Shown: positions 10,269-59,143, numbered from the stretch's first letter. The stretch: 64,000 nt of DNA from Gammaproteobacteria bacterium (GCA_965277715.1 OZ255836.1:3936001-4000000), one strand, 5' to 3'. Numbers and translations: made by a program. Notes: generated by a model not told the origin, from the sequence alone.

Positions 10269-10573
10269 ACAGTACTATTGCTAATAGGTAGTCAATTTGC
10301 GTTTAAGCTTAGAAATTGCTGATTGGTGAGGCAATGTGGGAATGCACGCATTGTGCCGGATTTTATCGACAGAATAATAAGATGATTTATTTTGTAAACA
10401 TATGTGCTAATAATAAACAACGATGATTTTAGTGGACGATTTTTTGTGGGTGTCTTATGATTCTGAAAATTTAGCTGTGTTTCCCAGGTGTCACTTAATA
10501 GCTTGAATTTAAAATATTTTTCAGGTTTTTACGGAAATTATTCGCTATAACCCACTCATTAGAGGTGCCTCAG

Positions 10574-25457: not shown

Positions 25458-25605
25458 GGAACGTGTACGAAATAAACACTGGGGTTCGTCAATGCATCGA
25501 TTTACCTTATATCTGAATTGGCTTGAGTGTGTTATTAAAAAATGGCACATTATTGAAATAACATAATAAAAGCGGAAGTTATTTCGTGCACGTTCCTTAT
25601 CGAGG

Positions 25606-26403
25606 TTAAGTGTGTTGCCCAATAAACCTCAGCACGAGGTTATTGCAGACATCAGGCTGCTCCCAGAATACTGCATGGCCTGCCCCAGGCACGGCAGTGA
25701 ACTGACAATCTGGAATCGGTTTGGCCAATAACTGCATTAATGCGGGCGGGGAGAGCAGATCGGCTTCTCCGGCAATCATAAGTACAGGCATACGCAGGGT
25801 TGCCAGCCGTGCATAATCCATTGCTTGGCGTAGCGGTTGGTGTAGGTCGATGGCTTCTGGTCTACGACTATTGTGCTCAATTTCCAGCCAGCGGCGCACA
25901 CCTTCAGGGTTAAACCCACGGTATGTCGGGCCAATTTCACGCAACTCGGCGGGTAGTGCCTGCATGGCAGCAGGCCATATTCGTTGTTGTATATTTACAT
26001 AAGCCTTATCTTTAACGCCACCCAGTGTACAGGCAGCTACCAGGCTAATTACCTGAGCAGGGTAGGTTGATGCATAGTCCAGCGCAACGATAGCGCCTGC
26101 CGCTATTGATACCAAATGAAAATGCTCAACCCCCAAATGCGTTACCAACGCATGTAAGTCATCACAAACATCGACAGTAAGTACTTTGGATGCGTCAGAT
26201 TGTGATCGACCCCAGCCCCTTCGGTCATAAACAATGCAACGATACCCCGCCGCAGTGAAGGCAGGTAATTGATTGTACCAACTGTCACAATTGCCAGATG
26301 CTGCGTGTAATAAAACGATGGCTGGTGTGTCGGCCGCTCCCCCGCTGTCCTGATACCAGAGGCGGGCGCCGGAAAAATTAAAATAGGGCATCAAAAGTTC
26401 CAT
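25606..26403 (-). CDS. Alpha/beta-hydrolase fold protein
   Basis: LLHA, YDRRGWGRS, GEAD and GAGHAVFWEQP. The nucleophile elbow is atypical (SIAAG). Confidence 0.85.
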   Translation of the reverse strand: MELLMPYFNFSGARLWYQDSGGAADTPAIVLLHAASGNCDSWYNQLPAFTAAGYRCIVYDRRGWGRSQSDASKVLTVDVCDDLHALVTHLGVEHFHLVSIAAGAIVALDYASTYPAQVISLVAACTLGGVKDKAYVNIQQRIWPAAMQALPAELREIGPTYRGFNPEGVRRWLEIEHNSRRPEAIDLHQPLRQAMDYARLATLRMPVLMIAGEADLLSPPALMQLLAKPIPDCQFTAVPGAGHAVFWEQPDVCNNLVLRFIGQHT

Positions 26404-26429
26404 AAAGTGCTGAGGTTATTAGCGCCTGT

Positions 26430-26463
26430 TTAACCTAAATTCAACTGAGGAATTTAGGTTTAA
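26430..26463. repeat. Family A palindrome, internally deleted copy
   Basis: AACCTAAATTC-aactgag-GAATTTAGGTT. Confidence 0.8.
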
Positions 26464-26707
26464 AGACAGAATTCAGGTATAACGGCATAAGTAGTCTATT
26501 TATTGGCCGCTGGCATCATTATTGTGTTGGTGAGGTAAACACAGGCTCGATATCAAAGTATTTGAGAATGGGCACAATGGGGCTAAATATACTCGTTGTA
26601 TCAGACCTTTTCATATGTCGGCCCACTGCTTTGTTATATTTTGTGAAAAAATCACATTTATGCAGGTTTTTTCTCAAGAGTTAACCTCGGTGGGTTATTT
26701 TTGTAGG

Positions 26708-26978
26708 TTACCTATATTCCGATTTTATCGCCTCAGTGTGCTCGCCCAAAGCGGGTGTTTCACGGGCGATAAAATCGCGCCCAGCACGTTGTGCCGCCGG
26801 GCTGACAACATGCTTTGCACCCGAGGGGGTAGGCGTTTCACAGCGCCGTAACTGGGAGTGCGTGGCCAGGCCGCTGACATCGTTCAGGTTGCCGTAGGCG
26901 ATATCAGCCGCGTTGAGTTTTTCTACTACCTTCGTGTGCGCATAGGCGGCAAATACCGGGCGGATAACCGCGTCCATC
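26708..26978 (-). pseudogene. 3' remnant of a CaiB/BaiF CoA-transferase (intact paralogue at 32985-34103)
   Basis: Near-identical to 32985-33255. Joined directly to the sequence found upstream of the intact copy (ATTGCTACGGTGGATC). Confidence 0.9.
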
Positions 26979-27005
26979 ATTGCTACGGTGGATCACATCA
27001 AACAA

Positions 27006-28160
27006 TTAAAACGACTTGGGTAACCCCAGTACATGCGTGGCGACATTAGACAATATTAAATTTGTCGAGATGGGGGCCACTTGGTAAAGGCGGGTTTCCC
27101 GGAATTTTCGCTCGACATCGTATTCGGTGGCAAAACCATAACCACCGTGGGTTTGCAGGCAGGTGTCAGCCGCTGCCCACGAGGCCTCTGAGGCCAATAG
27201 TTTTGCCATATTTGCCTCTGATCCACACTTCTCACCGGCATCAAATAGCGCGCAAGCATGTTCGACCATCTGCGCGGCGGCCTGGGTTTGCACATAGGCG
27301 CGGGCGATGGGAAATTGCACGCCCTGGTTTTTACCAATGGGCGCACCAAACACCTCGCGGTTGTTGGCGTAGTCGGTGGCTTTTTCGATAAACCAGCGCG
27401 CATCGCCGATACACTCTGCGGCGATCAAAATGCGCTCGGCATTCATGCCGTCGAGAATATAGCGAAAACCTTTGCCTTCCTCGCCCAACAGGCTCCCGGT
27501 GGGCACCCGTAAGTTATCGAAGAACAGCTCGGTGGTGGCGTGGTTGAGCATGGTGTCCAGCGTCTGAATCGTCAGCCCATTGCCGCGTGCTGTGCGTATA
27601 TCCACTAAAAAAACCGACATGCCATCGGTGGTTTTGGCGCATTGCTCGCGTGGGGTTGTACGTGCAAGTAACAACATTAGATCGGAGTGTTCGGTGCGTG
27701 AGATAAACACCTTTTGGCCATTGATCAGGTAACTGTCGCCATCGCGCACCGCGTGGGTGCGAATGCGCGTGGTATCCGTACCACTGCCTGGCTCGGTAAC
27801 GCCAAATGCCTGCAAACGCAATTCGCCCGAGGCGATAGCGGGCAGGTAGTGGCTTTTTTGTGCATCACTACCGTGCCGCAGTAGGGTGCCCATAGTGTAC
27901 ATCTGGGCATGGCAGGCGCCGCCGTTAGCACCACTGCGCTGAATTTCCTCCAGCACAGCACAGCCTGCAGCCAGATCGAGCCCGGATCCACCGTAGGCCT
28001 CGGGAATCAAAGTGGCGAGATACCCGGCGTCGGTGAGTGCGTTGATAAATGCAGTGGGGTACTGTTTTTTGGCATCCAGCTCACGCCAATAAGTGCCAGT
28101 GAAATCCGCGCACAACTTACTGACGGCTTCGCGTATTTCCGGGTAGGTTTGTTGCTTCAT
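27006..28160 (-). CDS. Acyl-CoA dehydrogenase family protein
   Basis: FGVTEPGSGTD, INGQKVFIS, ERILIA, REVFGAPIG and QTHGGYG. Confidence 0.93.
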   Translation of the reverse strand: MKQQTYPEIREAVSKLCADFTGTYWRELDAKKQYPTAFINALTDAGYLATLIPEAYGGSGLDLAAGCAVLEEIQRSGANGGACHAQMYTMGTLLRHGSDAQKSHYLPAIASGELRLQAFGVTEPGSGTDTTRIRTHAVRDGDSYLINGQKVFISRTEHSDLMLLLARTTPREQCAKTTDGMSVFLVDIRTARGNGLTIQTLDTMLNHATTELFFDNLRVPTGSLLGEEGKGFRYILDGMNAERILIAAECIGDARWFIEKATDYANNREVFGAPIGKNQGVQFPIARAYVQTQAAAQMVEHACALFDAGEKCGSEANMAKLLASEASWAAADTCLQTHGGYGFATEYDVERKFRETRLYQVAPISTNLILSNVATHVLGLPKSF

Positions 28161-28175
28161 AATCGGTTTAATGAC

Positions 28176-29024
28176 TTATTCAGAGTTTGGATCAATACCC
28201 GCCTTTTTCAACAAAGCGTATAGCCGCTCTTTTTCTTGAAGTGCGGCTTCTTTTTGCCTGTGCGCCTCCTGTTCGTTTTTTAGCGCGGCTTCTTTCTGCC
28301 TGCGTTCGTCGTTCATCGCCTTAACCGCCTCGCTTAGTGAACGCTGCCGGGACTTTTCCTCCCGGAGAATATTCTGTCGGGCCTGGTAAAGGTGGTAATC
28401 CTGCTCTTTCTCTGAAAATCGTTTCAATATGGCCATCGCCTGCCTCATTTCTTCGGTATCAAGTTCTGTGGGAAGTACTTCCCACTTGTCTGCATCCTTA
28501 AAAAAATACATCCATTGGTCTTTCGCTTCAAGGTTGTGGTGCCGTCGCCACTTTTCCAGTTCCAGTACATGGATAGCGCAGTGAGGCGAAAGCACACGCT
28601 GCTGTTCAAGATCCGCCATTTGAAAGCGGTGGTGATAACAGTCACTGTCCTTGAATAGGTTTTCACCCAATAGCCAGATGGATATCGAGGGTTGCAGCTT
28701 GTGATAGTCCTGCCCACTCTGGATCTGCGCACCGTAAATATCACTCCAACAATACAGCATTCGCTCCGGTAGATAGGGGAATACATTTAATTGTAGCTCC
28801 ACCTGATAGGTGTTATTGGCCGCATCACGGGCTTTTATATCGACTATGGTGAGTTTGTCTGACAGGTATTCTTTTTCATTGTAAGGGTTGAGGATTTCAA
28901 CGTCTGTGATGGGACTCTCAGGGGTGAGTACGCCATTGAGAAAGTGAATCAGCAGTGGGGTATTTTCCGGTGCGCCCAGGATGGCTTTAAAGACACAATC
29001 AATTTTTGGATCAATGAGGGGCAT
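28176..29024 (-). CDS. Rpn-family PD-(D/E)XK nuclease, copy 1 (282 aa; 1 tail repeat)
   Basis: IDPKIDCVFK, FLNGVL, VDIKARD...QVELQ and RMLY motifs of the PDDEXK_2/TIGR01784 family; charged coiled-coil tail. Confidence 0.9.
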   Translation of the reverse strand: MPLIDPKIDCVFKAILGAPENTPLLIHFLNGVLTPESPITDVEILNPYNEKEYLSDKLTIVDIKARDAANNTYQVELQLNVFPYLPERMLYCWSDIYGAQIQSGQDYHKLQPSISIWLLGENLFKDSDCYHHRFQMADLEQQRVLSPHCAIHVLELEKWRRHHNLEAKDQWMYFFKDADKWEVLPTELDTEEMRQAMAILKRFSEKEQDYHLYQARQNILREEKSRQRSLSEAVKAMNDERRQKEAALKNEQEAHRQKEAALQEKERLYALLKKAGIDPNSE

Positions 29025-29062
29025 GGTGTGTTTGTTGGCGGCGCTATAGTCGGTTTAATGAC

Positions 29063-30037
29063 TTATTCAGAGTCGGGATCAATACCCGCCTTTTTCAACA
29101 AAGCGTATAGCCGCTGTTTTTCTTGAAGTGCGGCTTCTTTCTGCCTACGCTCTTCCTGCTCCTTTTTCAATGCGGCTTCTTTCTGCCTACGCTCTTCCTG
29201 CTCCTTTTTCAATGCGGCTTCTTTTTGCCTACGCTCTTCCTGCTCCTTTTTCAATGCGGCTTCTTTTTGCCTACGCTCTTCCTGCTCCTTTTTCAATGCG
29301 GCTTCTTTTTGCCTGCGTTCGTCGTTCATCGCCTTAACCGCCTCGCTTAGTGAACGCTGCCGGGACTTTTCCTCCCGAAGAATGTTCTGACGGGCCTGGT
29401 AAAGGTGGTAATCCTGCTCTTTCTCTGAAAATCGTTTCAATATGGCCATCGCCTGCCTCATTTCTTCGGTATCAAGTTCTGTGGGAAGTACTTCCCACTT
29501 GTCTGCATCCTTAAAAAAATACATCCATTGGTCTTTCGCTTCAAGGTTATGGTGCCGTCGCCACTTTTCCAGTTCCAGTACATGGATAGCGCAGTGGGGC
29601 GAAAGCACACGCTGCTGTTCAAGATCCGCCATTTGAAAGCGGTGGTGATAACAGTCACTGTCCTTGAATAGGTTTTCACCCAATAGCCAGATGGATATCG
29701 AGGGTTGCAGCTTGTGATAGTCCTGCCCACTCTGGATCTGCGCACCGTAAATATCACTCCAACAATACAGCATTCGCTCCGGTAGATAGGGGAATACATT
29801 TAATTGTAGCTCCACCTGATAGGTGTTATTGGCCGCATCACGGGCTTTTATATCGACTATGGTGAGTTTGTCTGACAGGTATTCTTTTTCATTGTAAGGG
29901 TTGAGGATTTCAACGTCTGTGATGGGACTCTCAGGGGTGAGTACGCCATTGAGAAAGTGAATCAGCAGTGGGGTATTTTCCGGTGCGCCCAGGATGGCTT
30001 TAAAGACACAATCAATTTTTGGATCAATGAGGGGCAT
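29063..30037 (-). CDS. Rpn-family nuclease, copy 2 (324 aa; 4 tail repeats)
   Basis: Nuclease domain identical to copy 1 in translation; four RRQKEAALKKEQEE units. Confidence 0.9.
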   Translation of the reverse strand: MPLIDPKIDCVFKAILGAPENTPLLIHFLNGVLTPESPITDVEILNPYNEKEYLSDKLTIVDIKARDAANNTYQVELQLNVFPYLPERMLYCWSDIYGAQIQSGQDYHKLQPSISIWLLGENLFKDSDCYHHRFQMADLEQQRVLSPHCAIHVLELEKWRRHHNLEAKDQWMYFFKDADKWEVLPTELDTEEMRQAMAILKRFSEKEQDYHLYQARQNILREEKSRQRSLSEAVKAMNDERRQKEAALKKEQEERRQKEAALKKEQEERRQKEAALKKEQEERRQKEAALKKEQEERRQKEAALQEKQRLYALLKKAGIDPDSE

Positions 30038-30075
30038 GGTGTGTTTGTTGGCGGCGCTATAGTCGGTTTAATGAC

Positions 30076-31029
30076 TTATTCAGAGTCGGGATCAATACCC
30101 GCCTTTTTCAACAAAGCGTATAGCCGCTGTTTTTCTTGAAGTGCGGCTTCTTTCTGCCTACGCTCTTCTTGCTCCTTTTTCAATGCGGCTTCTTTCTGCC
30201 TACGCTCTTCCTGCTCCTTTTTCAATGCGGCTTCTTTCTGTCTACGCTCTTCCTGCTCCTTTTTCAATGCGGCTTCTTTTTGCCTGCGCTCTGATTCTTT
30301 CTGTCTGCGTTCGTCGTTCATCGCCTTAACCGCCTCGCTTAGTGAACGCTGCCGGGACTTTTCCTCCCGAAGAATATTCTGTCGGGCCTGGTAAAGGTGG
30401 TAATCCTGCTCTTTCTCTGAAAATCGTTTCAATATGGCCATCGCCTGCCTCATCTCTTCGGTATCAAGTTCTGTGGGAAGGGCTTCCCACTTGTCTGCAT
30501 CTCTGAAAAAATACATCCATTGGTCTTTTGCTTCAAGGTTGTGGTGCCGTCGCCACTTTTCCAGTTCCAGTACATGGATAGCGCAGTGGGGTGAAAGCAC
30601 ACGCTGCTGTTCAAGATCCGCCATTTGAAAGTGGTGGTGATAGCAGTCACTGTCATTGAATAAATTTTCACCCAATAGCCAGATGGATATCGAGGGTTGC
30701 AGTTTGTGATAGTCCTGCCCACTTTGAATCTGCGCACCGTAAATATCACTCCAACAATACAGCATCCGCTCCGGTAGATAGGGGAATATATTTAATTGCA
30801 GCTCTACCTGATAGGTGTTATTGGTCGCATCACGGGCTTTTATATCGACTATGGTGAGTTTGTCTGAAAGGTATTCCTTTTCGTTGTAAGGGTTGAGAAT
30901 TTCAACGTCTGTGATGGGATTCTCAGGAGTGAGTACGCCATTGAGAAAGTGAATCAGCAACGGGATATTTTCCGGTGCGCCCAGGATGGCTTTAAAGACA
31001 CAATCAATTTTTGGATCAATGAGGGGCAT
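30076..31029 (-). CDS. Rpn-family nuclease, copy 3 (317 aa; 3.5 tail repeats)
   Basis: Same motifs with a few substitutions; extra heptad RRQKESE. Confidence 0.9.
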   Translation of the reverse strand: MPLIDPKIDCVFKAILGAPENIPLLIHFLNGVLTPENPITDVEILNPYNEKEYLSDKLTIVDIKARDATNNTYQVELQLNIFPYLPERMLYCWSDIYGAQIQSGQDYHKLQPSISIWLLGENLFNDSDCYHHHFQMADLEQQRVLSPHCAIHVLELEKWRRHHNLEAKDQWMYFFRDADKWEALPTELDTEEMRQAMAILKRFSEKEQDYHLYQARQNILREEKSRQRSLSEAVKAMNDERRQKESERRQKEAALKKEQEERRQKEAALKKEQEERRQKEAALKKEQEERRQKEAALQEKQRLYALLKKAGIDPDSE

Positions 31030-31067
31030 GGTGTGTTTGTTGGCGGCGCTATAGTCGGTTTAATGAC

Positions 31068-32084
31068 TTATTCAGAGTCGGGATCAATACCCGCCTTTTT
31101 CAACAAAGCGTATAGCCGCTCTTTTTCTTGAAGTGCGGTTTCTTTTTGCCTGTGCGCCTCCTGTTCGTTTTTTAGCGCGGCTTCTTTTTGCCTACGCTCT
31201 TCCTGCTCCTTTTTCAATGCGGCTTCTTTCTGCCTACGCTCTTCCTGCTCCTTTTTCAATGCGGCTTCTTTTTGCCTGTGCGCTTCCTGCTCCTTTTTCA
31301 ATGCGGCTTCTTTTTGCCTGTGCGCTTCCTGCTCCTTTTTCAATGCGGCTTCTTTTTGCCTGCGTTCGTCGTTCATCGCCTTAACCGCCTCGCTTAGTGA
31401 ACGCTGCCGGGACTTTTCCTCCCGAAGAATGTTCTGACGGGCCTGGTAAAGGTGGTAATCCTGCTCTTTCTCTGAAAATCGTTTCAATATGGCCATCGCC
31501 TGCCTCATTTCTTCGGTATCAAGGTCTGCGGGAAGCGCTTCCCACTTGTCTGCATCTCTGAAAAAATACATCCATTGGTCTTTCGCTTCAAGGTTATGGT
31601 GCCGTCGCCACTTTTCCAGTTCCAGTACATGGATAGCGCAGTGGGGTGAAAGCACACGCTGCTGTTCAAGGTCTGCCATTTGAAAGTGATGGTGATAACA
31701 GTCACTGTCCCTGAATAGATTTTCACCCAATAGCCAGATGGATATCGAGGGTTGCAGCTTGTGATAGTCCTGCCCACTCTGGATCTGCGCACCGTAAATA
31801 TCACTCCAACAATACAGCATTCGCTCCGGTAGATAGGGGAATATATTTAATTGTAGCTCCACTTGGTAGGTGTTATTGGCCGCATCACGGGCTTTTATAT
31901 CGACTATGGTGAGTTTGTCTGAAAGGTATTCCTTTTCGTTGTAGGGGTTGAGAATTTCAACGTCTGTGATTGGACTCTCAGGGGTGAGTACACCGTTGAG
32001 AAAGTGAATCAGCAACGGGATATTTTCCGGTGCACCCAGGATGGCTTTAAAGACACAATCAATTTTTGGATCAATGAGGGGCAT
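31068..32084 (-). CDS. Rpn-family nuclease, copy 4 (338 aa; 5 tail repeats)
   Basis: Start taken at MPLIDPK, as in the other copies. Confidence 0.9.
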   Translation of the reverse strand: MPLIDPKIDCVFKAILGAPENIPLLIHFLNGVLTPESPITDVEILNPYNEKEYLSDKLTIVDIKARDAANNTYQVELQLNIFPYLPERMLYCWSDIYGAQIQSGQDYHKLQPSISIWLLGENLFRDSDCYHHHFQMADLEQQRVLSPHCAIHVLELEKWRRHHNLEAKDQWMYFFRDADKWEALPADLDTEEMRQAMAILKRFSEKEQDYHLYQARQNILREEKSRQRSLSEAVKAMNDERRQKEAALKKEQEAHRQKEAALKKEQEAHRQKEAALKKEQEERRQKEAALKKEQEERRQKEAALKNEQEAHRQKETALQEKERLYALLKKAGIDPDSE

Positions 32085-32157
32085 GGTGTGTTTGTTGGCG
32101 ACACTGCATAGCGATAACAAACGCCAGTCTACCATCTTCGTATAGGTAAACCATCAT

Positions 32158-32320
32158 CCTAGAAAACGCAGTTGAGCGCGAAAAAGCTGTGCAAGGCATT
32201 GGTGTGCATGGGAACGTTTAAAAATGCGTGGTCACCTTATTGGTGATGAGCAATTTTTACACTTTTCCAGGTGCGCCAAGGGCTTGTGCAGACTTTCGTG
32301 AGGCAACGATGTTTTCTAGG
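32158..32320. mobile_element. 163-bp MITE (family C) with terminal inverted repeats and 5-bp target-site duplication
   Basis: Ends CCTAGAAAAC/GTTTTCTAGG flanked by ATCAT on both sides. The paralogous region at ~35256-35270 has the empty site AAACC-ATCAT-GCACC. Confidence 0.9.
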
Positions 32321-32346
32321 ATCATGCACCTTCGTGGAGAATAACG

Positions 32347-32430
32347 TGTGAACCGGGAGACCCCTACCCACAACAGCTTGTGATTGAATGTGGAGGTTCT
32401 GCGCTCTCTTGATATAACCGCATGAGCCAA
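32347..32430 (+). pseudogene. Fused relics of the EthD-like gene and the pcaH 3' end
   Basis: 32347-32402 resembles 23965-24020, and TTGATATAACCGCATGAGCCAAGCAGTA resembles the end of pcaH (~25429-25456). Confidence 0.75.
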
Positions 32431-32447
32431 GCAGTAGGCTGTCGCCG

Positions 32448-32952
32448 TTAAGTGTGTTGCCCAATAAACCTCAGCACGAGGTTATTGCAGACTTTGGGCT
32501 GCTCCCAAAATACTGCATGGCCTGCCTCGGGCACGGCAGTGAGCTGGCAATCCGGGATCGGTTTGGCCAATAACTGCATTAATGCGGGTGGGGAGAGCAG
32601 ATCGGCTTCTCCGGCAATCATAAGTACAGGTATACGCAGGGTTGCCAGCCATGCATAATCCATTGCTTGGCGTAGCGGTTGGTGTAGGTCGATGGCTTCT
32701 GGTCTACGACTGGTGTGCTCAATTTCCAGCCAGCGGCGCCCCCCTTCAGGGTTGAACCCACGGTATGCCGGGCTAATTTCACGCAACTCGGCGGGTAGTG
32801 CCTGCATGGCAGCAGGCCATATTCGTTGTTGTATATTTACATAAGCCTTATCTTTAACGCCACCCAGTGTACAGGCAGCTACCAGGCTAATTATCTGGGC
32901 AGGGTAGGTTGTTGATGCATAGTCCAGCGCAACGATAGCGCCTGCCGCTATT
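32448..32952 (-). pseudogene. 5'-truncated duplicate of the alpha/beta hydrolase
   Basis: Near-identical to 25606-26107. The 5' part is deleted, with the junction jumping to sequence equivalent to 26676. Confidence 0.9.
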
Positions 32953-32984
32953 AAGAGTTAACCTCGGTGGGTTATTTTTGTAGG

Positions 32985-34103
32985 TTACCTATATTCCGAT
33001 TTTATTGCCTCAGTGTGCTCGCCCAAAGCGGGTGTTTCACGGGCGATAAAATCGCGCCCAGCATGTTGTGCCGCCGGGCTGACCACACGCTTTACACCCG
33101 AGGGGGTAGGCGTTTCACAGCGCCGTAGCTGGGGGTGCGTGGCCAGACCGCTGACATCGTTCAGATTGCCGTAGGCGATATCAGCCGCGTTGAGTTTTTC
33201 TACTACCTCCGTGTGCGCATAGGCGGCAAATACCGGGCGGATAACCGCGTCCATCGATGTACGGTTTTCCACGCGTTTAATGTTGCTGTCGAAGCGCGCA
33301 TCACTGGCAATGTCTGGGCGTTCCAGCACCTGTTCACATAAACGCTTCCACTCGCGTTCATTTTGAATAGCGATGACAATACTGCGCTGGTCACGGGTTT
33401 CGTAGGCGCCGTAGGGGGCGATAGTGGCGTGGTTGATACCCACCCGCTGCTGGATTTTTCCACTGTAGTCGTAATGCAATAACGGCACGGCCATCAGTTC
33501 GGCAACACTATCAAACAACGATACCTGAACCGTGCACCCCGCGCCGCTGGCTTCGCGCTCAATCAATGCTTCGAGAATAGCGGTGTAAGCGTGGTGGCCA
33601 CAGTTGATATCGCAAATCGAGACACCCACGCGACCGGGGGCGTTCGGTGTGCCACTCACCGACGTGATGCCCGCCTCACACTGCACCAGCAAATCGTAGG
33701 CCTTCATGTGCTGGTAGCTACCGTGCTCGCCATAACCGGAAATATCACAACAGATCAAGCGTGGATAACGTGCGCGCAAATCACTGGAACCGAAGCCAGC
33801 CCGTGCGGCAGCACCGGGGGCGAGATTTTGAATAAACACATCGGCACTGCGCAAAATGCGGTGCAACAGCGCGGTGTCCTGATCGTCTTTAATATTGACC
33901 ACCAGGGATTCTTTACCGCGATTCAACCACACAAAATAAGCGCTTTCACCGTCGACGACAGCATCGTAATTGCGGGCAAAATCACCCTCACTGCGCTCAA
34001 TTTTGATCACCCGTGCACCGGCATCGGCGAGACGGCAGGAGCAGTAGGGCGCAGCGACTGCCTGCTCCAGCGTAACCACGAGGGTATCTTTTAAATTCAA
34101 CAT
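32985..34103 (-). CDS. CaiB/BaiF family III CoA-transferase
   Basis: EQAVAAPY, LADAGARVIKIE, LNRGKES, ISGYG, KAYD and TPALGEHT. Confidence 0.93.
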   Translation of the reverse strand: MLNLKDTLVVTLEQAVAAPYCSCRLADAGARVIKIERSEGDFARNYDAVVDGESAYFVWLNRGKESLVVNIKDDQDTALLHRILRSADVFIQNLAPGAAARAGFGSSDLRARYPRLICCDISGYGEHGSYQHMKAYDLLVQCEAGITSVSGTPNAPGRVGVSICDINCGHHAYTAILEALIEREASGAGCTVQVSLFDSVAELMAVPLLHYDYSGKIQQRVGINHATIAPYGAYETRDQRSIVIAIQNEREWKRLCEQVLERPDIASDARFDSNIKRVENRTSMDAVIRPVFAAYAHTEVVEKLNAADIAYGNLNDVSGLATHPQLRRCETPTPSGVKRVVSPAAQHAGRDFIARETPALGEHTEAIKSEYR

Positions 34104-34135
34104 GGATTATTGCTACGGTGGATCACATCAAACAA

Positions 34136-34177
34136 TTAAAACGACTTGGGTAACCCCAGTACATGTGTGGCGACATT
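34136..34177 (-). pseudogene. Last 42 bp of a deleted acyl-CoA dehydrogenase duplicate
   Basis: Matches 27006-27047, then jumps to the rpn downstream flank. Confidence 0.8.
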
Positions 34178-34195
34178 CGACGTCGGTTTAATGGC

Positions 34196-35191
34196 TTATT
34201 CAGAGTCGGGGTCAATGCCCGCCTTTTTCAGTAAGGCACGTAACCGCGTCTTTTCCTGAAACGCCGCCTCTTTCTGTCTGTGCGCTTCCTGTTCGTTTTT
34301 TAGTGCGGCTTCTTTTTGCCTATGTGCCTCCTGTTCGTTTTTTAGTGCGGCTTCTTTTTGCCTATGTGCCTCCTGTTCGTTTTTTAGCGCGGCTTCTTTT
34401 TGCCTGTGCGCTTCCTGTTCTTTTTTGAGGGCTTCCTGTTCCTTTTTTAACGCGACTTCTTTCTGCCTGCGTTCGTCGTTCATCGCCTTAACCGCCTCGC
34501 TTAGTGAACGCTGCCGGGACTTTTCCTCCCGAAGAATGTTCTGACGGGCCTGGTAAAGGTGGTAATCCTGCTCTTTCTCTGAAAATCGTTTCAATATGGC
34601 CATCGCCTGCCTCATTTCTTCGGTATCAAGGTCTGCGGGAAGCGCTTCCCACTTGTCTGCATCTCTGAAAAAATACATCCATTGGTCTTTCGCTTCAAGG
34701 TTGTGGTGCCGTCGCCACTTTTCCAGTTCCAGTACATGGATAGCGCAGTGGGGTGAAAGTACTCGCTGCTGCTCAAGATCCGCCATTTGAAAGCGGTGGT
34801 GATAACAGTCACTGTCCCTGAATAGATTTTCACCCAATAGCCAGATGGATATCGAGGGTTGCAGCTTGTGATAGTCCTGCCCACTTTGAATCTGTGCACC
34901 GTAAATATCACTCCAACAATACAGCATTCGCTCCGGTAGATAGGGGAATATATTTAATTGTAGCTCCACCTGGTAGGTGTTATTGGCCGCATCACGGGCT
35001 TTTATATCGACTATGGTGAGTTTGTCTGAAAGGTATTCCTTTTCGTTGTAGGGGTTGAGAATTTCAACGTCTGTGATTGGACTCTCAGGGGTGAGTACAC
35101 CATTGAGAAAGTGAATCAGCAACGGGATATTTTCCGGTGCGCCCAGGATGGCTTTAAAGACACAATCAATTTTTGGATCAATGAGGGGCAT
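34196..35191 (-). CDS. Rpn-family nuclease, copy 5 (331 aa; 4.5 tail repeats)
   Basis: Same nuclease domain; tail of HRQKEAALKNEQEA units plus an extra heptad LKKEQEA. Confidence 0.9.
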   Translation of the reverse strand: MPLIDPKIDCVFKAILGAPENIPLLIHFLNGVLTPESPITDVEILNPYNEKEYLSDKLTIVDIKARDAANNTYQVELQLNIFPYLPERMLYCWSDIYGAQIQSGQDYHKLQPSISIWLLGENLFRDSDCYHHRFQMADLEQQRVLSPHCAIHVLELEKWRRHHNLEAKDQWMYFFRDADKWEALPADLDTEEMRQAMAILKRFSEKEQDYHLYQARQNILREEKSRQRSLSEAVKAMNDERRQKEVALKKEQEALKKEQEAHRQKEAALKNEQEAHRQKEAALKNEQEAHRQKEAALKNEQEAHRQKEAAFQEKTRLRALLKKAGIDPDSE

Positions 35192-35406
35192 GGTGTGTTT
35201 GTTGGCGACACTGCATAGCGATAACAAACGCCAGTCTACCACCTTCGTATAGGTAAACCATCATGCACCCGCATGGAGAATAATGTATTGCACAGTAAAT
35301 TTTTAGTGGCTTTCAAATAACCGTTGTCTATTTCTTGGGTTCTCGCTGCTTAATATTGTAAATTATTGAAAGTTATTAATGCTATTAAACTTGGATGGGT
35401 ATATCG

Positions 35407-37288: not shown

Positions 37289-38581
37289 ATGACTGAGGTC
37301 ATCGCGACCAATGAAACAGTGCTGGTGGTTGGGGCAGGTGTCAGCGGAATTACCGCAGCGCTTGACGTGGCTGAGCTGGGCAAAAAAGTTATTCTGCTGG
37401 AAAAACGCCCCTTTGTCGGTGGCCGGATTACCCAGTTGTATAAATACTTTCCCAAGCTGTGTTTTCCCACCTGTGGCCAGGAAATCAACCAACGCCGTAT
37501 CAAAGCCAATAAGAACCTTACGGTGCTGACAATGGCAGAGGTCACCCAGGTGGCTGGAGAAGAGGGTAACTACCAGGTCTCTATCACCATCAAACCGCGC
37601 TATATCAATGAAAACTGCACGGCCTGCGGTGATTGTGCCAAGGCCGTAGAAGCCACCTTTGACAATGACTTTAACTACGGGCTGGGCGGCACCGAAGGCG
37701 GCAAGCGCAAAGGGGCTTATCTGCCCTATAACCTCGCCTACCCACAGCGCTATGTCATTGACCCACTGATGATCGGCACCGAGGAGGCGAATAAAGCCAA
37801 GGCGGCCTGTAAAGTCGATGCTGTCGATCTGGACATGCAGGCGCAAACACTCGACCTGAACGTGGCGGCGATTATCTGGGCCACCGGCTGGCAACCTTAC
37901 GATGCCGCGAAAATCCAGCCCTACGGGTATGACCGCTACGCCAACGTGATCACCAGCGTGGAATTCGAGCGCATGATGGACCCCTTCGGCCCAACCGATG
38001 GCAAGCTGTTGCGCCCCTCGGACGGCAGCGAGGCAAAAAATGTGGCGTTTATTCAGTGCGCCGGTTCGCGTGATGAAAACCATTTGAAACACTGCTCGCG
38101 CATCTGTTGCATGGCCTCCTTGAAGCAGAGCACCTACCTCGGTGAAAAATTTGGCGATGAAGGTAAAGCGACAATTTACTACATCGACATTCGCGCCATC
38201 GACCGCTTTGAAGGCTTTTACAAACAGGTACAGGCGGATAAAAACACCACCTTTATCAAATCCAAAGTGGCCAATATCACGGAAGATGAAAACGCCAACC
38301 CGGTATTGCACGGCGTCGATACCGAAGGCTATCACCGCTATGCCACAGCGCATGATCTAGTCGTACTGGCCGTGGGCATGCAACCCAGTGGTGGCAATTT
38401 GCCCGGTGAGGTGCGCGTTAACCAACACGGCTACATCGAACAGGACGTGAACAACGGCGGTATTTTTGCCGCAGGCTGTGCAGCCGATGCACTGGATGTT
38501 AACCGTGCGGTGCAATCGGCATCCGCCGCCGCCCTGCGGGCTATCCAGGTGGTCAACCGCGCCGCCTCTGTGGAGAACTAG
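37289..38581 (+). CDS. qmoA: QmoA (HdrA-like flavoprotein)
   Basis: GAGVSG, YKYFPKLCFPTCG, QCAGSRD and CSRICCMASLKQ; 430 aa. Confidence 0.88.
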   Translation: MTEVIATNETVLVVGAGVSGITAALDVAELGKKVILLEKRPFVGGRITQLYKYFPKLCFPTCGQEINQRRIKANKNLTVLTMAEVTQVAGEEGNYQVSITIKPRYINENCTACGDCAKAVEATFDNDFNYGLGGTEGGKRKGAYLPYNLAYPQRYVIDPLMIGTEEANKAKAACKVDAVDLDMQAQTLDLNVAAIIWATGWQPYDAAKIQPYGYDRYANVITSVEFERMMDPFGPTDGKLLRPSDGSEAKNVAFIQCAGSRDENHLKHCSRICCMASLKQSTYLGEKFGDEGKATIYYIDIRAIDRFEGFYKQVQADKNTTFIKSKVANITEDENANPVLHGVDTEGYHRYATAHDLVVLAVGMQPSGGNLPGEVRVNQHGYIEQDVNNGGIFAAGCAADALDVNRAVQSASAAALRAIQVVNRAASVEN

Positions 38582-38584
38582 ACA

Positions 38585-40816
38585 ATGGCAGCAGAAAAAA
38601 CAACTGGTGCGTATATTTGCAGTGGCTGCGGATTGGGTGATCGGCTCGATACCGCGCAACTGGAAACCGTTGCCACCCGTGAAGGTAAAGTCAATTACGT
38701 AAAACACCACGACTTCCTGTGTAACGCCGAGGGCGTTTCGATGATCCGCGACGATATTGAAGCGGGCACCAGCCACGTCGTCATCGCCGCCTGCTCGCGC
38801 CGCGCCAAGACCGATGCGTTTAACTTCGATAACGTGGCCATGTCGCGCGCCAATCTGCGTGAGGGCGTCATCTGGATTCGCCCGGACGATGAGGCCTCGC
38901 GAGAGACCACCCAGGATATGGCCAGCGACTACCTGCGCATGGCCTGTTTTGAAAACAAATTTATGCAACGGCCAACGCCTTCCGGTGAACAATCGCTGGA
39001 TAAAAATATCTTGGTCGTCGGCGGTGGTGTGTCGGGAATGACCGCTGCGCTGGAATCAGCGCGTGCCGGTTATGCGGTAACACTGGTTGAAAAGTCGGGC
39101 AGGCTCGGCGGTATTGCCGCCCAGCTGTACCGGCAAATGCCCGCAACCGCGCCCTATATCGACCCCCAGGTCACCGATATCGATGCGCTGCGCGCCGATA
39201 TTGAAAGCCATGCCAGTATCAGTGTTCACCTGAATTCGATTGTGGCTAAAACAGCGGGTGCGCCGGGCCGTTTTCAAGTCGATATCGCCACCGAGAGCGG
39301 CAGCCAGTCACACACCGCCGTAGGTGCTATTGTACAGACCAGCGGCTTCAAACCCTACGATGCTAACCAACTGCCGGAATTTGCCTACGGCCAAAGCCCG
39401 GATGTGGTTACCCAGCTCGAACTGGAAGCCCTGGCAAAAGCCACTGACGGGCAAATGCTGCGACCCTCTGATGGCAAACCGATTAACAGTGTGGTGTTTG
39501 TCCAGTGCGCCGGGCAGCGTAGCGACAAAGCCAATCACCTCGCCTACTGCTCTGGTTTTTGTTGTGGTACCTCGATTAAGCAGGCAATGTACTTCAAAGA
39601 CAACAACCCGCAGATCGACACCACGATTTGCTACACCGATTTGCGTACCCCCGGCGCCGGAGGCGAGGATTTTTACCGTAGCGGTCAGCAAAAAGGCATT
39701 ATCTTTAGTAAAGCGGTCGTCAACGAAGTCGTCCCCGGTGAGAACAACCTGGCGGTACGGGTGCACGATCTCATCCTCGCGCAAGACGATGTGATCGATG
39801 CCGATTTAGTCGTGCTCGCCACCGGCATGGTCGCCAACTCCGGTCCCGATCCCTACGCCGTACCGGCGACCGACAAGGGCGATGAAGGCAGCGCCACTGA
39901 AGTGAAAATCCCCGTCGAGTCAATCCTCAACCTCGACTACCGCCAGGGTACAGACCTGCCACAACTCGCGCATGGTTTTAACGATTCACACTTTATCTGC
40001 TTTCCCTATGAAACCCGCCGCACCGGCATCTACGCCGCTGGCCCCGTGCGCCGCCCAATGGATATAGCGCAAACCAAAGACGACGCCACAGGCGCCGCAA
40101 TGAAGGCGATTATCGAAGTTGAAAACGCCGGTAAAGGCATGGCCGCGCACCCGCGCTCGGGTGATTTGAGCTTCCCCACATTCCGCGCTGAAGGGTGTAC
40201 CCAGTGCAAACGCTGTACCGTCGAATGCCCGTTTGGGGCGATCAATGAAGACGAAAAGCGCTACCCGGTATTTAACGAATCGCGCTGTCGTCGTTGTGGC
40301 ACGTGCATGGGGGCCTGCCCGGTGCGGGTTATCTCATTTGAAAACTACTCAATCGATACGGTTGGCCAGCAAATCAAAAATATTGATATGCCGGATGAGT
40401 TTGAAGAAAAACCGCGTGTGTTGGTATTGGCCTGCGAAAATGATGCCTACCCGGCGTTGGATATGGCCGCACAAAATCGCATCCACTACAGCCCGTATGC
40501 CCGTGTGGTGCCAGTGCGCTGTCTTGGCTCGGTGTCCATGAGCTGGATAACCGATGCGCTCAATACCGGCTACGATGGTATCGTCATGATGGGCTGCCAG
40601 AAAGGCGCCAACTACCAGTGCCACTTTGTGCGCGGCTCTGAAATGGCCCACGAACGGCTCGGCAAAGTCAGCGATACGCTTGAATCCCTGAGCCTGGAAG
40701 CCGAGCGCGTGGCTGTGCACGAGGTGGCGATTACCGATATTGCCCGTGCGCCCAAATTGATTGACGATATGTTGGACGTCGTCGAAAAAGTGGGCATGAG
40801 CCCGTTTAAATTTTAA
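38585..40816 (+). CDS. qmoB: QmoB (HdrA-like FAD domain + ferredoxin + MvhD domain)
   Basis: YICSGC, FICFPYETRRTGIY, CTQCKRCTVECPFG, CRRCGTCMGACP, ACENDAYPA and VRCLG; ends SPFKF. Confidence 0.9.
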   Translation: MAAEKTTGAYICSGCGLGDRLDTAQLETVATREGKVNYVKHHDFLCNAEGVSMIRDDIEAGTSHVVIAACSRRAKTDAFNFDNVAMSRANLREGVIWIRPDDEASRETTQDMASDYLRMACFENKFMQRPTPSGEQSLDKNILVVGGGVSGMTAALESARAGYAVTLVEKSGRLGGIAAQLYRQMPATAPYIDPQVTDIDALRADIESHASISVHLNSIVAKTAGAPGRFQVDIATESGSQSHTAVGAIVQTSGFKPYDANQLPEFAYGQSPDVVTQLELEALAKATDGQMLRPSDGKPINSVVFVQCAGQRSDKANHLAYCSGFCCGTSIKQAMYFKDNNPQIDTTICYTDLRTPGAGGEDFYRSGQQKGIIFSKAVVNEVVPGENNLAVRVHDLILAQDDVIDADLVVLATGMVANSGPDPYAVPATDKGDEGSATEVKIPVESILNLDYRQGTDLPQLAHGFNDSHFICFPYETRRTGIYAAGPVRRPMDIAQTKDDATGAAMKAIIEVENAGKGMAAHPRSGDLSFPTFRAEGCTQCKRCTVECPFGAINEDEKRYPVFNESRCRRCGTCMGACPVRVISFENYSIDTVGQQIKNIDMPDEFEEKPRVLVLACENDAYPALDMAAQNRIHYSPYARVVPVRCLGSVSMSWITDALNTGYDGIVMMGCQKGANYQCHFVRGSEMAHERLGKVSDTLESLSLEAERVAVHEVAITDIARAPKLIDDMLDVVEKVGMSPFKF

Positions 40817-40833
40817 AGAGAGGGTGTCGGAAT

Positions 40834-41463
40834 ATGAGTAGCGAAAATACCGCTCACTACCGCAACAACTTTCTGCGCGAAGTGGAAATGAACGTTGAGG
40901 AAGGCCACTGGGTAAAGATGTGTATGCAGTGTGGCGTTTGTTCTGGCTCCTGCCCCCTGGGCACGCACTGGGAACACCCACCACAGAAAATTTTCCAGAT
41001 GATCCGTGCAGGGCAGCGCGAGGCCGTGCTCACCTCTGACTCCATGTGGATGTGTACCTCCTGCTACAACTGCATGGCGCGCTGCCCACGTAAACTGCCC
41101 ATCACCCACATCATGCACGGCCTGGCGCACTACGCAAAGCGCCTTGGCCTGTCACCCAAATACCAACCCACCGAACGTTTCTCACAAATGTTTTGGGATA
41201 ACCTCATGCAAACCGGGCGCGTCAACGAACTGCGCCTAGGGGTTCGCCTGTACTTTATTAACGGCTTTGTCGAAGGCATTAAAACGGCGTTAAAAATGCT
41301 GCCAATTGGCCTGGGGATGATGCGCACCAGGCGGGCCAACCCATTAGAACTGCTCAGTGGTCACGGCGTTAAAGATGTGAAAGGTTTTCACGCCATAATG
41401 AAAAAAGCCCAGGAACTGGAAGCGGCGCGTATCGCCGCGAACACAGAAAAACTAGCGAGTTAA
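40834..41463 (+). CDS. hdrC: HdrC-like iron-sulfur subunit
   Basis: CMQCGVCSGSCP and WMCTSCYNCMARCP. Confidence 0.88.
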   Translation: MSSENTAHYRNNFLREVEMNVEEGHWVKMCMQCGVCSGSCPLGTHWEHPPQKIFQMIRAGQREAVLTSDSMWMCTSCYNCMARCPRKLPITHIMHGLAHYAKRLGLSPKYQPTERFSQMFWDNLMQTGRVNELRLGVRLYFINGFVEGIKTALKMLPIGLGMMRTRRANPLELLSGHGVKDVKGFHAIMKKAQELEAARIAANTEKLAS

Positions 41464-41471
41464 GTCACACC

Positions 41472-42374
41472 ATGGCAACCAAAGAATATTCATTTTACCC
41501 CGGCTGTTCATCACAGCGTGGCGCCTCGTCATCGAACTACCTGAAATCGGTTGAAACGATGTGTGAAGACCTGGATATTAAACTCAACACGATCCCCGAC
41601 TGGAACTGCTGCTCGGCGTCAATCGGTTACAGTGGCGGGGGGGAGCTGCCCCGCCTGGCGTTGTCTGCGCGCAATATCGCGCTCTCTGAACAACACAATC
41701 CCGGTCAGGAAATTGTCGCCTCCTGCGCCGCCTGCTGGTTGTCGACGCGTGAAACCGCCGAGCGCCTGCGTGACAACGATGACCTGATGGCGGAAACCAA
41801 TCAGGCACTGGCCGAGGCGGGTTTGAAGCTGAAGAACGAAACCCCCATCAAGCATATGGTGGAGGTGATGATCGAAGATTTTGGCTACGAAAAACTGGCT
41901 GAAAAGGTTAAGAAACCGCTCGAAGGTTTAAAGGTTGCCGGTTATGTAGGGTGCCAGACAAACCGGCCTTTTGGGATTGAGGGTGAATCTTTTGAGAACC
42001 CCAAATACCTCGATAAACTGGTGGAGACAATGGGGGGAGAGGCGGTTGACGATTACGAGAAGAAAGTCTCGTGTTGTGGTGGGGCTTTGGCCTTTTCTGA
42101 GCCGGAGAAGAGTCAGGCCTTGATTAAGGATATTATCGAATCGGCTTACGATCATGGGGCGGATATTATTACTACCCCGTGTCCGGTGTGTCAGATGAAT
42201 GTTGAGGTATACCAGGATCAAATCAATGCCAAGTATGGGACTAAGTTTAATATGCCGGTGACGTATTACAGTACGTTGATGAATGTTGCCTATGGGCATG
42301 ATGCCAAGGAATCTGCTTTGGATGGGCAGATTATCCCTGCCAAGAAACTGGAGGAGATTGCTGCCAGGCGTTAG
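41472..42374 (+). CDS. hdrB: HdrB-like CCG-domain subunit
   Basis: YPGCS, WNCCS, CAAC, YVGC, SCCGG and PCPVC. Confidence 0.88.
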   Translation: MATKEYSFYPGCSSQRGASSSNYLKSVETMCEDLDIKLNTIPDWNCCSASIGYSGGGELPRLALSARNIALSEQHNPGQEIVASCAACWLSTRETAERLRDNDDLMAETNQALAEAGLKLKNETPIKHMVEVMIEDFGYEKLAEKVKKPLEGLKVAGYVGCQTNRPFGIEGESFENPKYLDKLVETMGGEAVDDYEKKVSCCGGALAFSEPEKSQALIKDIIESAYDHGADIITTPCPVCQMNVEVYQDQINAKYGTKFNMPVTYYSTLMNVAYGHDAKESALDGQIIPAKKLEEIAARR

Positions 42375-54848: not shown

Positions 54849-55217
54849 AGTGGTTACCTCGGTTGTCTATAAAGGTGAGCGGGGTCAATGGGGTGTGCCT
54901 TAACCGCCCGGTTGATTCTGGTTTTTTAGATTGAAGATTCAAAAAGTGGGTTGCCAAGTGTCCGCAGCCCCCCCGTATATTAACGCTGGCATTATACGTT
55001 TTCAGGTTTTTATATGATTGGTGCTAAAACGCCTGTTTTTTGTGTGGGGCGGCCATAGGGTTTATCAATCAGCCGATTGGTTGGCGATTGGTTGGCGATT
55101 GGGTTTTAGTAAAATATTTTCCGGCACTTTCTACAGCAGGGTGCAGAGGAGGGGGATCCCCTGAAAGACTCGCGTTCTTAGTCGGCATTTTCTAGGCGTA
55201 CTGTTTTTAGCACTTTT

Positions 55218-55302
55218 TTGGTAGTGAGGCATTGTTAACTTTTCCAGGTGTGCCAAGGGCTTTTGCCGGGTTTCATTTTGTTCGGTAACTGCGTTTTCCA
55301 GG
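55218..55302. repeat. Degenerate partial relative of the family C MITE
   Basis: 55238-55262 matches 32261-32285 at 24/25 positions; ends in GTTTTCCAGG, like the MITE right end. Confidence 0.6.
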
Positions 55303-55483
55303 TTTAGGTGAAAGAGGATCTGCTTCCAGGCGGCTATCAGGTTTCAGTGTGCCTGGTATTGGCGTAAGCGGGTAACCCCGTGTCGTTTGAGTGCTAGTTT
55401 ATTCGTATTTGACGCCTTAGCATCCGCCGACTGCGGTCGCTATATTGTACCGCTTAGTGAATTTAGCCTTGGAGGTATCAAGC

Positions 55484-56197: not shown

Positions 56198-56218
56198 TTG
56201 CACTGCTGTGTTATCCCG

Positions 56219-56415
56219 AGCACACCGGCTACCTTATATTGACGGGTTCAGCGCAACGCCCAACAAATTAATGTTACACGACGGGTTAGCCCACAGACAC
56301 CCCAGAACTGGGTTGTTTTTACTCACCATAACACCACTATGGCTGCGTAAAAACGCCTTGCTCTGCCACGCTTGTGGGCTAACTGAACCCGACAATAGCA
56401 GGCAGACAGTGTGCT
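56219..56415. mobile_element. 197-bp MITE-like element (family B) with 33-bp imperfect terminal inverted repeats
   Basis: 56219-56251 versus 56383-56415 are complementary at 27/33 positions. Nested stems GTTAGCCCACA/TGTGGGCTAAC and GTTTTTAC/GTAAAAAC. Confidence 0.7.
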
Positions 56416-56448
56416 AGTACTTTCTTCCCTGGCTATAAGCATGCAACG

Positions 56449-57616: not shown

Positions 57617-57628
57617 GAGGATTTGAAT

Positions 57629-59117: not shown

Positions 59118-59143
59118 GGCACCCTCTTATCGGAGAATATTGT

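Follow-up and report, generated by a model that had tools for sequence, protein, structure and literature searches.

Known Rpn systems and the locus under study

The rpn genes of Escherichia coli encode a toxic nuclease, RpnL, and an antitoxin, RpnS, which is made from an internal start and corresponds to the variable carboxyl-terminal domain of Rpn (Zhong et al. 2023, PMC10400941). The two products share a helix built of 4-amino acid (aa) repeats whose number varies between strains, and RpnL is silenced solely by an S protein of equal repeat number, one extra repeat abolishing the pairing (PMC10400941). The same work describes free-standing S genes downstream of some rpn genes, attributes rpn arrays to tandem direct duplication and reports that a plasmid-encoded Rpn protects against some phages (PMC10400941). 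In a commentary, Koonin argued that repeat variation will prevent inhibition in trans where several copies are co-resident (PMC10400984). The driver of repeat-number tuning, and whether co-resident copies escape inhibition of one another in trans, were left open in both publications (PMC10400941, PMC10400984).

Here we describe five rpn genes, rpn1 to rpn5, in a 64,000-nucleotide (nt) stretch of DNA from a Gammaproteobacteria bacterium (GCA_965277715.1, OZ255836.1:3936001-4000000), hereafter the window, whose first letter is position 1. Genes rpn1 to rpn4 are arranged head to tail and rpn5 lies 2,111 bp beyond rpn4. Their products are PD-(D/E)XK nucleases extended by charged tails that are built of different numbers of 7-aa repeats. 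We favour, at a probability of about one half and by analogy with E. coli, a reading in which each gene would specify a full-length nuclease L and an intragenic antitoxin S, silencing would require tails of matching length and the copies would act as insulated modules. Rpn arrays and the insulation of co-resident copies by repeat number are already published, and the interpretation proposed in an initial annotation of the window is largely the published Rpn model applied to this locus. What the sequences analysed here appear to add is a heptad ladder found across the family, similar arrays elsewhere in which all copies differ in length, and a conserved candidate internal start, GAGG-N6-ATG, at Met197.

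Five nuclease genes of the Rpn family

All five proteins match Pfam PF12784 (PDDEXK_2) with 164.5-171.2 bits (E 4e-50 to 4e-48; gathering cut-off 27.4 bits), the matches spanning residues 6-225 and profile positions 1-224 of 229. They also score 97.7-104 bits with the NCBIfam model TIGR01784 (Rpn family recombination-promoting nuclease/putative transposase; cut-off 52.1 bits), which E. coli RpnA passes at 160.9 bits. No match to PF04754 (Transposase_31, YhgA-like), the family of E. coli RpnA-E, was obtained in the five proteins at E up to 0.01; for RpnA the match has E 1.6e-91. Because RpnA and the window proteins pass TIGR01784 alike, the latter are assigned by profile to the Rpn family in NCBI's broad sense, within a Pfam family unlike that of the characterised E. 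coli proteins. The initial annotation had named them Rpn nucleases, an identity that the PF12784 and TIGR01784 searches support. All 32 aligned sequences have D9, D62, E76, Q78 and R88, and a weak hhalign match pairs these residues with RpnA D11, D63, E82, Q84 and R94, whose mutation abolishes or alters in-vivo phenotypes (Kingston et al. 2017, PMC5350276).

The five open reading frames (ORFs) are intact and have the lengths first reported (Table 1). The starts given for rpn4 and rpn5 are the Met codons that align with those of homologues; both ORFs could run 17 codons further. Over their whole length the other proteins are 95-98% identical to rpn1. Pairs of genes differ at 5-34 of the first 717 nt, in keeping with the almost identical nuclease domains remarked on at the outset. 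Nearly all differences are synonymous and the ratio of non-synonymous to synonymous change (dN/dS) is 0.00-0.09, with a synonymous divergence pS of up to 0.17 (10 pairs); therefore all five copies have been kept under purifying selection.

A heptad ladder in the tails

The heptads counted in Table 1 lie between N238 and a conserved carboxyl-terminal end. They are of two alternating types, QE(E/A)(R/H)RQK and EAALK(K/N)E, forming units of 21/42 bp at the DNA level. TRF reports 42-bp arrays of 4.4, 3.6, 5.5 and 3.8 copies in rpn2 to rpn5, and the repeat of rpn2 is near-perfect in DNA, with 99% matches over 4.4 units. The 1, 4, 3.5, 5 and 4.5 units of the initial annotation describe the same ladder but are offset by a constant one unit from the heptad count. 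The half-unit steps are real: rpn3 has two ERRQK-type heptads in a row and rpn5 two ALKKE-type heptads in a row. Genes rpn1 and rpn2 differ at 5 of 717 nt, yet by 6 heptads, so that tail length changes faster than point substitution, through gain and loss of repeat units. All five protein lengths equal 2 modulo 7, as had been stated. This congruence gives no independent evidence for register selection because the repeat units are 21 nt long, and the preservation of a coiled-coil register read from it does not follow.

Neutral length drift in functional nuclease genes is the main rival to the L/S reading. Tail length would then have no function, any multiple of 7 aa would be tolerated in a charged helix, the ladder and the different lengths would be by-products of slippage and recombination, and the array would reflect duplication-prone DNA, perhaps promoted by the nuclease itself. 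The near-perfect repeats of rpn2, the fast length mutation seen between rpn1 and rpn2 and the mechanical origin of the congruence all agree with such drift. We nevertheless hold it to be rather unlikely: the conserved anchors on either side of the variable part and the conserved internal start described below argue for a working module, and a single added repeat is enough to abolish pairing in E. coli Rpn (PMC10400941).

The initial annotation also proposed that the tails are coiled coils. In the best heptad register 0-25% of a/d positions are strongly hydrophobic (22-45% with Ala counted), so at most a quarter in any register, and a canonical coiled coil is not supported. Charged residues account for 48-63% of the tails, Leu recurs once every 14 aa and there are 4-26 i/i+4 pairs of opposite charge, a composition resembling that of an ER/K single alpha-helix (SAH). 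An AlphaFold2 (AF2) model of rpn2 built from a 32-row alignment (mean pLDDT 77.6, pTM 0.61) predicts an alpha/beta domain like that of PD-(D/E)XK nucleases, followed by a helix at 191-205 and an unbroken one at 208-316. The Ala-Ala-Leu patch that recurs every 14 residues could support weak pairing of tails. A predicted complex of two copies of rpn2 residues 197-324 gave a median score of 0.30 (mark 0.42), which speaks neither for nor against binding.

Such a tail might serve as a ruler between the nuclease and a carboxyl-terminal docking or dimerisation motif, its length setting the geometry or the reach of cleavage, much as repeat number sets the spacer recognised by EcoR124I/II, with no antitoxin involved. 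The high charge, the up to 26 i/i+4 pairs and the sparse leucines are those expected of a single helix, as is the straight helix of the AF2 model. SAH domains are described as rigid connectors (PMC5812594, PMC5347031), and Zhong et al. draw the parallel with EcoR124 (PMC10400941). We regard the ruler as improbable, since it leaves the conserved internal Shine-Dalgarno (SD)-ATG and the free-standing ORFs of the carboxyl-terminal module unexplained.

The ladder in relatives and in other arrays

Thirty homologues were fetched of 120 listed, the best non-self identity being 64%. All share one plan: the nuclease domain, an EMRQAM-x-L-x-RFSEKE..YHLYQARQN block, variable charged 7-aa repeats whose sequences are lineage-specific, and an ...LLKKAGIDPD end. 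A scan of genome contigs recovered 460 relatives, from which 79 loci were kept, the source genome of the window not being among them. Extraction of genes with the amino-terminal motif gave 88, of which 67 were retained (at least 240 aa, free of X, with R-x-A-M). The best self-match of the tail falls at a lag of 7, 14 or 21 in 60 of the 63 tails long enough. Lengths were compared in the 890 pairs, of 2,211 possible, that have cores of equal length. At core identity of at least 90%, the difference is a non-zero multiple of 7 aa in 31 of 48 pairs, zero in 6 and some other number in 11 (21, 6 and 11 of 38 once the window's own ten pairs are removed). Between 60 and 80% identity multiples of 7 account for 73 of 682 pairs, about chance. 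Among these sequences the heptad ladder is a trait of the whole family. The recurrence of the period although repeat sequences differ between lineages points to a structural constraint on it and counts against neutral drift of length. No description of 7-aa repeat ladders in Rpn proteins was found in the literature searched, the supplement of Zhong et al. (PMC10400941) lying outside it.

At least two intact head-to-tail copies occur in 7 of the 79 loci (Table 1). Six of the seven have no two copies of the same length, and the differences are always multiples of 7 aa; the two copies of L028 are equal, a point in favour of neutral length. These arrays resemble that of the window in their head-to-tail order, short constant gaps and tails that differ by multiples of 7 aa. 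Their nuclease domains are at least 98% identical in L038, L039, L044 and L049 and 86-87% identical in L032 and L034. The loci share 44-63% best-segment identity with the window proteins (51% or less for those holding arrays) and differ from them in repeat sequence. Five intact copies or a 14-aa half-unit structure, as in the window, were seen in none of the fetched loci.

The two nearest genomes carry the closest homologues (51-63% best-segment identity) scattered across many loci and not in tandem: L001, L004, L006, L010 and L013 share one 4.26-Mb chromosome, and L002, L003, L005, L007, L008, L009, L014 and L071 belong to one other assembly. Their lengths still form a heptad ladder of 268, 282, 289, 296 and 310 aa (database proteins).

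A conserved candidate internal start and the predicted product S

An internal start, ATGAGGCAGGCGATG, is a candidate in all five genes, where it is identical and places GAGG 6 nt before the ATG of Met197. Translation from it would give the in-frame S proteins of Table 1. All 32 aligned sequences have Met197. Three codons upstream, the Arg codon from which GAGG arises is AGG in 57 of the 67 genes and AGG or AGA in 61; among the remaining 1,313 Arg codons of these genes the share of AGG is 8.4%. Counted by cluster (single linkage, 80% identity), AGG or AGA is present in 28 of 31, and the adjacent Gln and Ala codons vary. Synonymous constraint was scanned in 231 five-codon windows (codons 3-233) across 41 representatives below 90% identity. 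The maximum lies at codons 192-197, with a ratio of 1.5-1.7 (mean 1.12, standard deviation 0.13). No SD motif precedes the main ATG of the rpn genes; one is present at no fewer than 15 of 45 other ORFs of the window (longest-ORF starts).

Small proteins matching the predicted S occur in databases. A search with rpn1 residues 185-282 among proteins of 53-172 aa gave 30 matches, of which 24 were fetched; 16 begin exactly at the equivalent of Met197, one begins at Met193 and three more are in-frame deletion forms of the kind described below. Fifteen of these 16 are 71, 78, 85, 92 or 99 aa long, and some are encoded on contigs of 270-560 kb. In L016, L032, L034 (two) and L040, full-length copies are immediately followed by intact ORFs that encode just the carboxyl-terminal module. 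Each gene most likely encodes two proteins, as judged from these patterns: the full-length L and an S of 86-142 aa starting at Met197.

Two further features of the coding sequences were noted. Secondary peaks of synonymous conservation lie at codons 59-61 (ratio 1.6) and 162-164 (1.5) in the same 41 representatives, which in rpn2 correspond to about 29855-29863 and 29546-29554. The second, some 100 nt upstream of the internal start, could mark an internal promoter as in E. coli rpn genes. Nuclease-less in-frame deletion forms of 105-135 aa that keep the main start (P0121, P0125, P0137 and locus L005, 5977-6342) join the first 20 or so nuclease residues to the carboxyl-terminal module.

Duplication history of the locus

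The ORF coordinates and a comparison of the spacers agree with the four tandem copies, identical 38-bp spacers and fifth copy 2.1 kb away of the initial annotation. In each spacer the 3' flank found downstream of rpn1 is fused to the 5' flank that precedes rpn4 and rpn5. One junction sequence present three times means that a single founding junction was propagated, as tandem duplication followed by unequal crossing-over predicts, and the array arose in this way. Two components of the expandable, recombination-tuned repertoire initially proposed are thereby upheld, tandem duplication by the thrice-repeated junction and length change by repeat gain and loss.

Self-comparison of the window, with gene identities from Pfam, also reveals a larger segmental duplication (copies A and B). 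A hydrolase remnant at 32448-32807 corresponds to the intact gene at 25606-26403, and a remnant of the family III CoA-transferase at 26708-26980 to the intact gene at 32985-34103. The acyl-CoA dehydrogenase is represented in copy B by just a 76-nt homology block (34106-34181) that includes its 3' end. Its start in copy A, at 28160, follows the stop of rpn1 after a gap of 15 nt. Unlike these metabolic neighbours, rpn survives in both duplicates and was amplified in copy A; the three remnants confirm the contrast drawn earlier between intact rpn copies and decayed duplicated genes. Decay over 25605-35264 is complementary, the hydrolase, CoA-transferase and dehydrogenase each having one intact copy, split between the duplicates.

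Site patterns support the tree ((rpn1, rpn2), (rpn3, (rpn4, rpn5))), rpn5 being nearest to rpn4 (14 of 717 nt differ). Six of 52 variable sites are incompatible with it and therefore indicate some gene conversion. Private substitutions number 12 in rpn3, 6 in rpn4, 4 in rpn5 and 2 in rpn1.

An assembly artefact, in which alleles of mixed strains were concatenated, has only the slimmest chance of accounting for the array. Such repeats are hard to assemble from short reads, but the copies carry the private substitutions just listed, form a coherent tree and have low dN/dS. The database places the window's own protein on a contig of 4,294,796 bp, and comparable arrays exist in independent assemblies (e.g. 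L038, L039, L032, L034). The database cluster of rpn2 counts 8 member sequences, which hints at further copies in the source genome.

The copies could alternatively be a selfish mobile element, the 'putative transposase' of annotation, inserted repeatedly. The dispersal of copies elsewhere (five loci on one 4.26-Mb chromosome, eight in one other assembly), the relatives on 717 plasmid and 9 phage records and database names invoking transposases or invertases would suit it. Three identical junctions fit tandem duplication and not independent insertion, rpn5 was copied along with its neighbours, and no inverted repeats flank rpn5 or the array. Zhong et al. concluded likewise for rpn genes generally (PMC10400941). 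We judge a mobile element very improbable. A homologue on a Clostridioides plasmid, which would link to the C. difficile gene of Zhong et al., was not found among the best 60 of the 717 plasmid records.

The surroundings of the junctions are conserved as well. Zones of about 140 nt (28975-29115, 29988-30128 and 30980-31120), made up of the 38-bp spacer with the last 51 nt of the preceding gene and the first 50 nt of the following one, show little or no difference among the array members; synonymous sites in the remainder of these genes differ by 14-17%. A neutral 38-bp spacer between the older copies would be expected to show about 5-6 differences, and none is observed. Local gene conversion would explain this, or else constraint, through translational coupling or a processing site.

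Table 1. Features of the rpn locus (window positions) and head-to-tail rpn arrays of related genomes (source, copy lengths and gaps).
Feature	Position or source	Strand or orientation	Description
rpn1	28176-29024	minus	282 aa; PD-(D/E)XK nuclease domain and tail of 4 heptads
rpn2	29063-30037	minus	324 aa; 10 heptads
rpn3	30076-31029	minus	317 aa; 9 heptads
rpn4	31068-32084	minus	338 aa; 12 heptads; ORF extendable to 32135
rpn5	34196-35191	minus	331 aa; 11 heptads; ORF extendable to 35242; in segmental duplicate copy B
Inter-gene spacers	29025-29062, 30038-30075, 31030-31067	minus	38 bp each, 100% identical
Upstream region common to rpn4 and rpn5	32085-32157 and 35192-35264	minus	73 nt; 1 difference in last 70 nt
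Heptad (21-nt)/14-aa (42-nt) repeat regions	rpn1 28230-28313, rpn2 29117-29326, rpn3 30130-30318, rpn4 31122-31373, rpn5 34250-34480	minus	
Candidate internal start ATGAGGCAGGCGATG	rpn1 28434-28448, rpn2 29447-29461, rpn3 30439-30453, rpn4 31494-31508, rpn5 34601-34615	minus	GAGG, 6 nt, ATG of Met197; identical in all five genes
Predicted in-frame S (RpnS-like), rpn1	28176-28436	minus	86 aa
Predicted in-frame S, rpn2	29063-29449	minus	128 aa
Predicted in-frame S, rpn3	30076-30441	minus	121 aa
Predicted in-frame S, rpn4	31068-31496	minus	142 aa
Predicted in-frame S, rpn5	34196-34603	minus	135 aa
Segmental duplicate copy A	25605-32157	direct	intact alpha/beta hydrolase, CoA-transferase 3' remnant, intact acyl-CoA dehydrogenase, rpn1-4
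Segmental duplicate copy B	32447-35264	direct	hydrolase 3' remnant, intact CoA-transferase, 76-nt dehydrogenase block, rpn5
Array L038	Thiohalocapsa sp. ML1		268/296/275/303 aa; gap 17 nt, four times
Array L039	Ca. Aalborgicola metagenome-assembled genome (MAG)		293/314 aa; gap 37 nt
Array L044	Ca. Methylumidiphilus MAG		302/295 aa; gap 94 nt
Array L049	Ca. Methylumidiphilus MAG		302/295 aa; gap 94 nt
Array L032	uncultured proteobacterium MAG		276/283 aa; gap 219 nt
Array L034	Methylomonas koyamae MAG		283/269 aa; gap 220 nt
Array L028	Thiorhodospira sibirica		336/336 aa; gap 253 nt

A proposed length-matched pairing of L and S

The L/S reading can be laid out as follows. One illegitimate tandem duplication, then unequal homologous recombination, together with one larger segmental duplication, produced the five paralogues. 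L and S would share a conserved helix (residues 197-236), a charged helix varying in 7-aa steps and a conserved hydrophobic end (RLYALLKKAGIDP). As RpnS does with RpnL in E. coli, S would attach to an L whose length matches and silence it. The two anchor contacts, through the 197-236 helix and the hydrophobic end, would form only if the rigid spacers between them are equally long, whether the helices pair in parallel or antiparallel. The number of heptads would be an address; slippage would make new addresses and unequal crossing-over would multiply the genes, so that the five genes might constitute five mutually insulated toxin/antitoxin, possibly anti-phage, modules. Translation of S, its binding to L, length-matched specificity, toxicity and defence are all expected by analogy with the E. 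coli system. The suggestion of the initial annotation that tail length may set the antitoxin match draws indirect support from the conserved candidate internal start.

Several observations weigh against this reading. The hhalign comparison of the rpn2 profile with RpnA is weak (E 0.17), and the same profile finds nothing below E 0.15 among Protein Data Bank (PDB) sequences, just look-alikes of the charged helix. Foldseek returned 0 matches of the rpn2 AF2 model to the PDB at E 0.001 or below, its best matches being PD-(D/E)XK nucleases such as McrC (E 0.019). PF14261/DUF4351 had no match at E up to 10 in the three S regions searched, and the S region is modelled by AF2 as part of one long helix (208-316) and not as the three-helix bundle solved for RpnA-S. 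Ten of the 67 genes lack AGG at the internal start. In six of them, with CGA or CGC, GGAG stands six nt further upstream, and the start geometry is therefore not uniform. Because the 67 genes are mutually related and were chosen for carrying R-x-A-M, their codon counts do not represent independent events. Gene finders could have called the small database proteins from what is left of broken genes. Arrays in which every length differs are also expected from fast slippage alone. As to defence, the two Rpn proteins tested had no PADLOC match, and Pfam shows catabolic and redox genes round the locus, with no defence genes recognised. Among 20 neighbours PADLOC gave just partial matches, to generic domains, and one weak match to a helix-turn-helix regulator. 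A defence-island context is not supported.

Within the L/S reading, the claim that in the PF12784 clade the number of heptads in a rigid charged helix between two conserved anchors alone decides which intragenic antitoxin silences which nuclease is put forward tentatively; we think it possible but doubtful. If it were true, insulated copies could stand side by side and acquire new specificities by slippage and unequal crossing-over, and the array would amount to a repertoire that expands by itself and that phage-encoded mimics would be unable to silence in full at one time. The locus offers a natural test set: five genes reside together, their products share 95-100% identity outside the tail, and essentially only heptad number sets them apart. 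It also extends the signature of a gene within a gene, the conserved internal SD-ATG, to a second Pfam family with another repeat period and a differently modelled S, suggesting that the principle predates the E. coli type or reaches beyond it.

Expression signals, insertions and neighbouring genes

Gene rpn4 is the first of the array in the direction of transcription and its sole member with an upstream region of its own. This region, common to rpn4 and rpn5, probably holds a promoter or a 5' untranslated region. A scan of the array for promoters and terminators found no promoter-like site on the minus strand and no terminator; therefore no internal promoter is proposed there. Rfam and tRNA scans of the window found no RNA genes.

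At 32158-32320, 73 nt ahead of the start of rpn4, lies a 163-bp insertion resembling a miniature inverted-repeat transposable element (MITE). Its ends are imperfect 17-nt inverted repeats (CCTAGAAAAC...), and a 5-bp sequence, ATCAT, is directly duplicated on either side (32153-32157 and 32321-32325). The homologous site upstream of rpn5 (about 35258-35268) is empty, and the 10-nt terminal words of the insertion occur nowhere else in the window. The original promoter of rpn4 may lie beyond the insertion. ORFs of 62-83 aa run antisense to the repeat regions on the plus strand at 29123-29350, 30141-30329 and 31133-31397; their Leu/Phe-rich repetitive translations look like by-products of the repeats and not like genes.

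The GC content of the array (47-48%) is like that of the flank at 20-27 kb, the mean of the window being higher (52%), and says nothing diagnostic about transfer. The flanks at 37289-42374 and 53172-61165 carry genes for HdrA-like, FlpD, 4Fe-4S and CCG-domain proteins. Further on are genes for a formate-tetrahydrofolate ligase, a corrinoid protein, a pterin-binding methyltransferase and a RACo-type activase, and an MttB-family methyltransferase is encoded at 10565-12118. These genes point to a host that metabolises methylamines or one-carbon compounds.

Comparison with known systems

Like ER/K SAH domains, the predicted tails have a high content of E, K and R and many i/i+4 salt-bridge pairs, show a 7-residue periodicity and lack a hydrophobic seam. 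Unlike these bacterial tails, SAH domains are known mainly from eukaryotic motor and scaffold proteins. Type I restriction enzymes EcoR124I and EcoR124II, with their TAEL repeats, likewise use the number of short repeats in a helix as a length code for specificity, as cited in PMC10400941. There the repeat, a 4-aa unit, belongs to the HsdS specificity subunit and is read out as the length of the spacer in the DNA target and not as choice of partner. The likeness is one of principle only.

The E. coli Rpn systems are among the closest described. The window proteins belong to PF12784 and RpnA to PF04754; the repeat unit is 7/14 aa here and 4 aa there, and repeats begin 41 residues after the candidate start, compared with 8-20 in E. 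coli Rpn. The S candidate of 86-142 aa is modelled as one long charged helix without DUF4351, whereas E. coli S is a compact three-helix bundle of about 50 aa. Unlike the E. coli Rpn systems, the locus is not in a defence neighbourhood. Like RpnA-E and RpnP2, its products are PD-(D/E)XK nucleases that have the same D, D, E-x-Q and R residues and pass TIGR01784. In common with E. coli Rpn they have variable repeats in a carboxyl-terminal helix and a candidate internal SD-ATG for a small carboxyl-terminal protein, and in both groups free-standing small modules lie downstream of some genes and arrays have formed by direct duplication.

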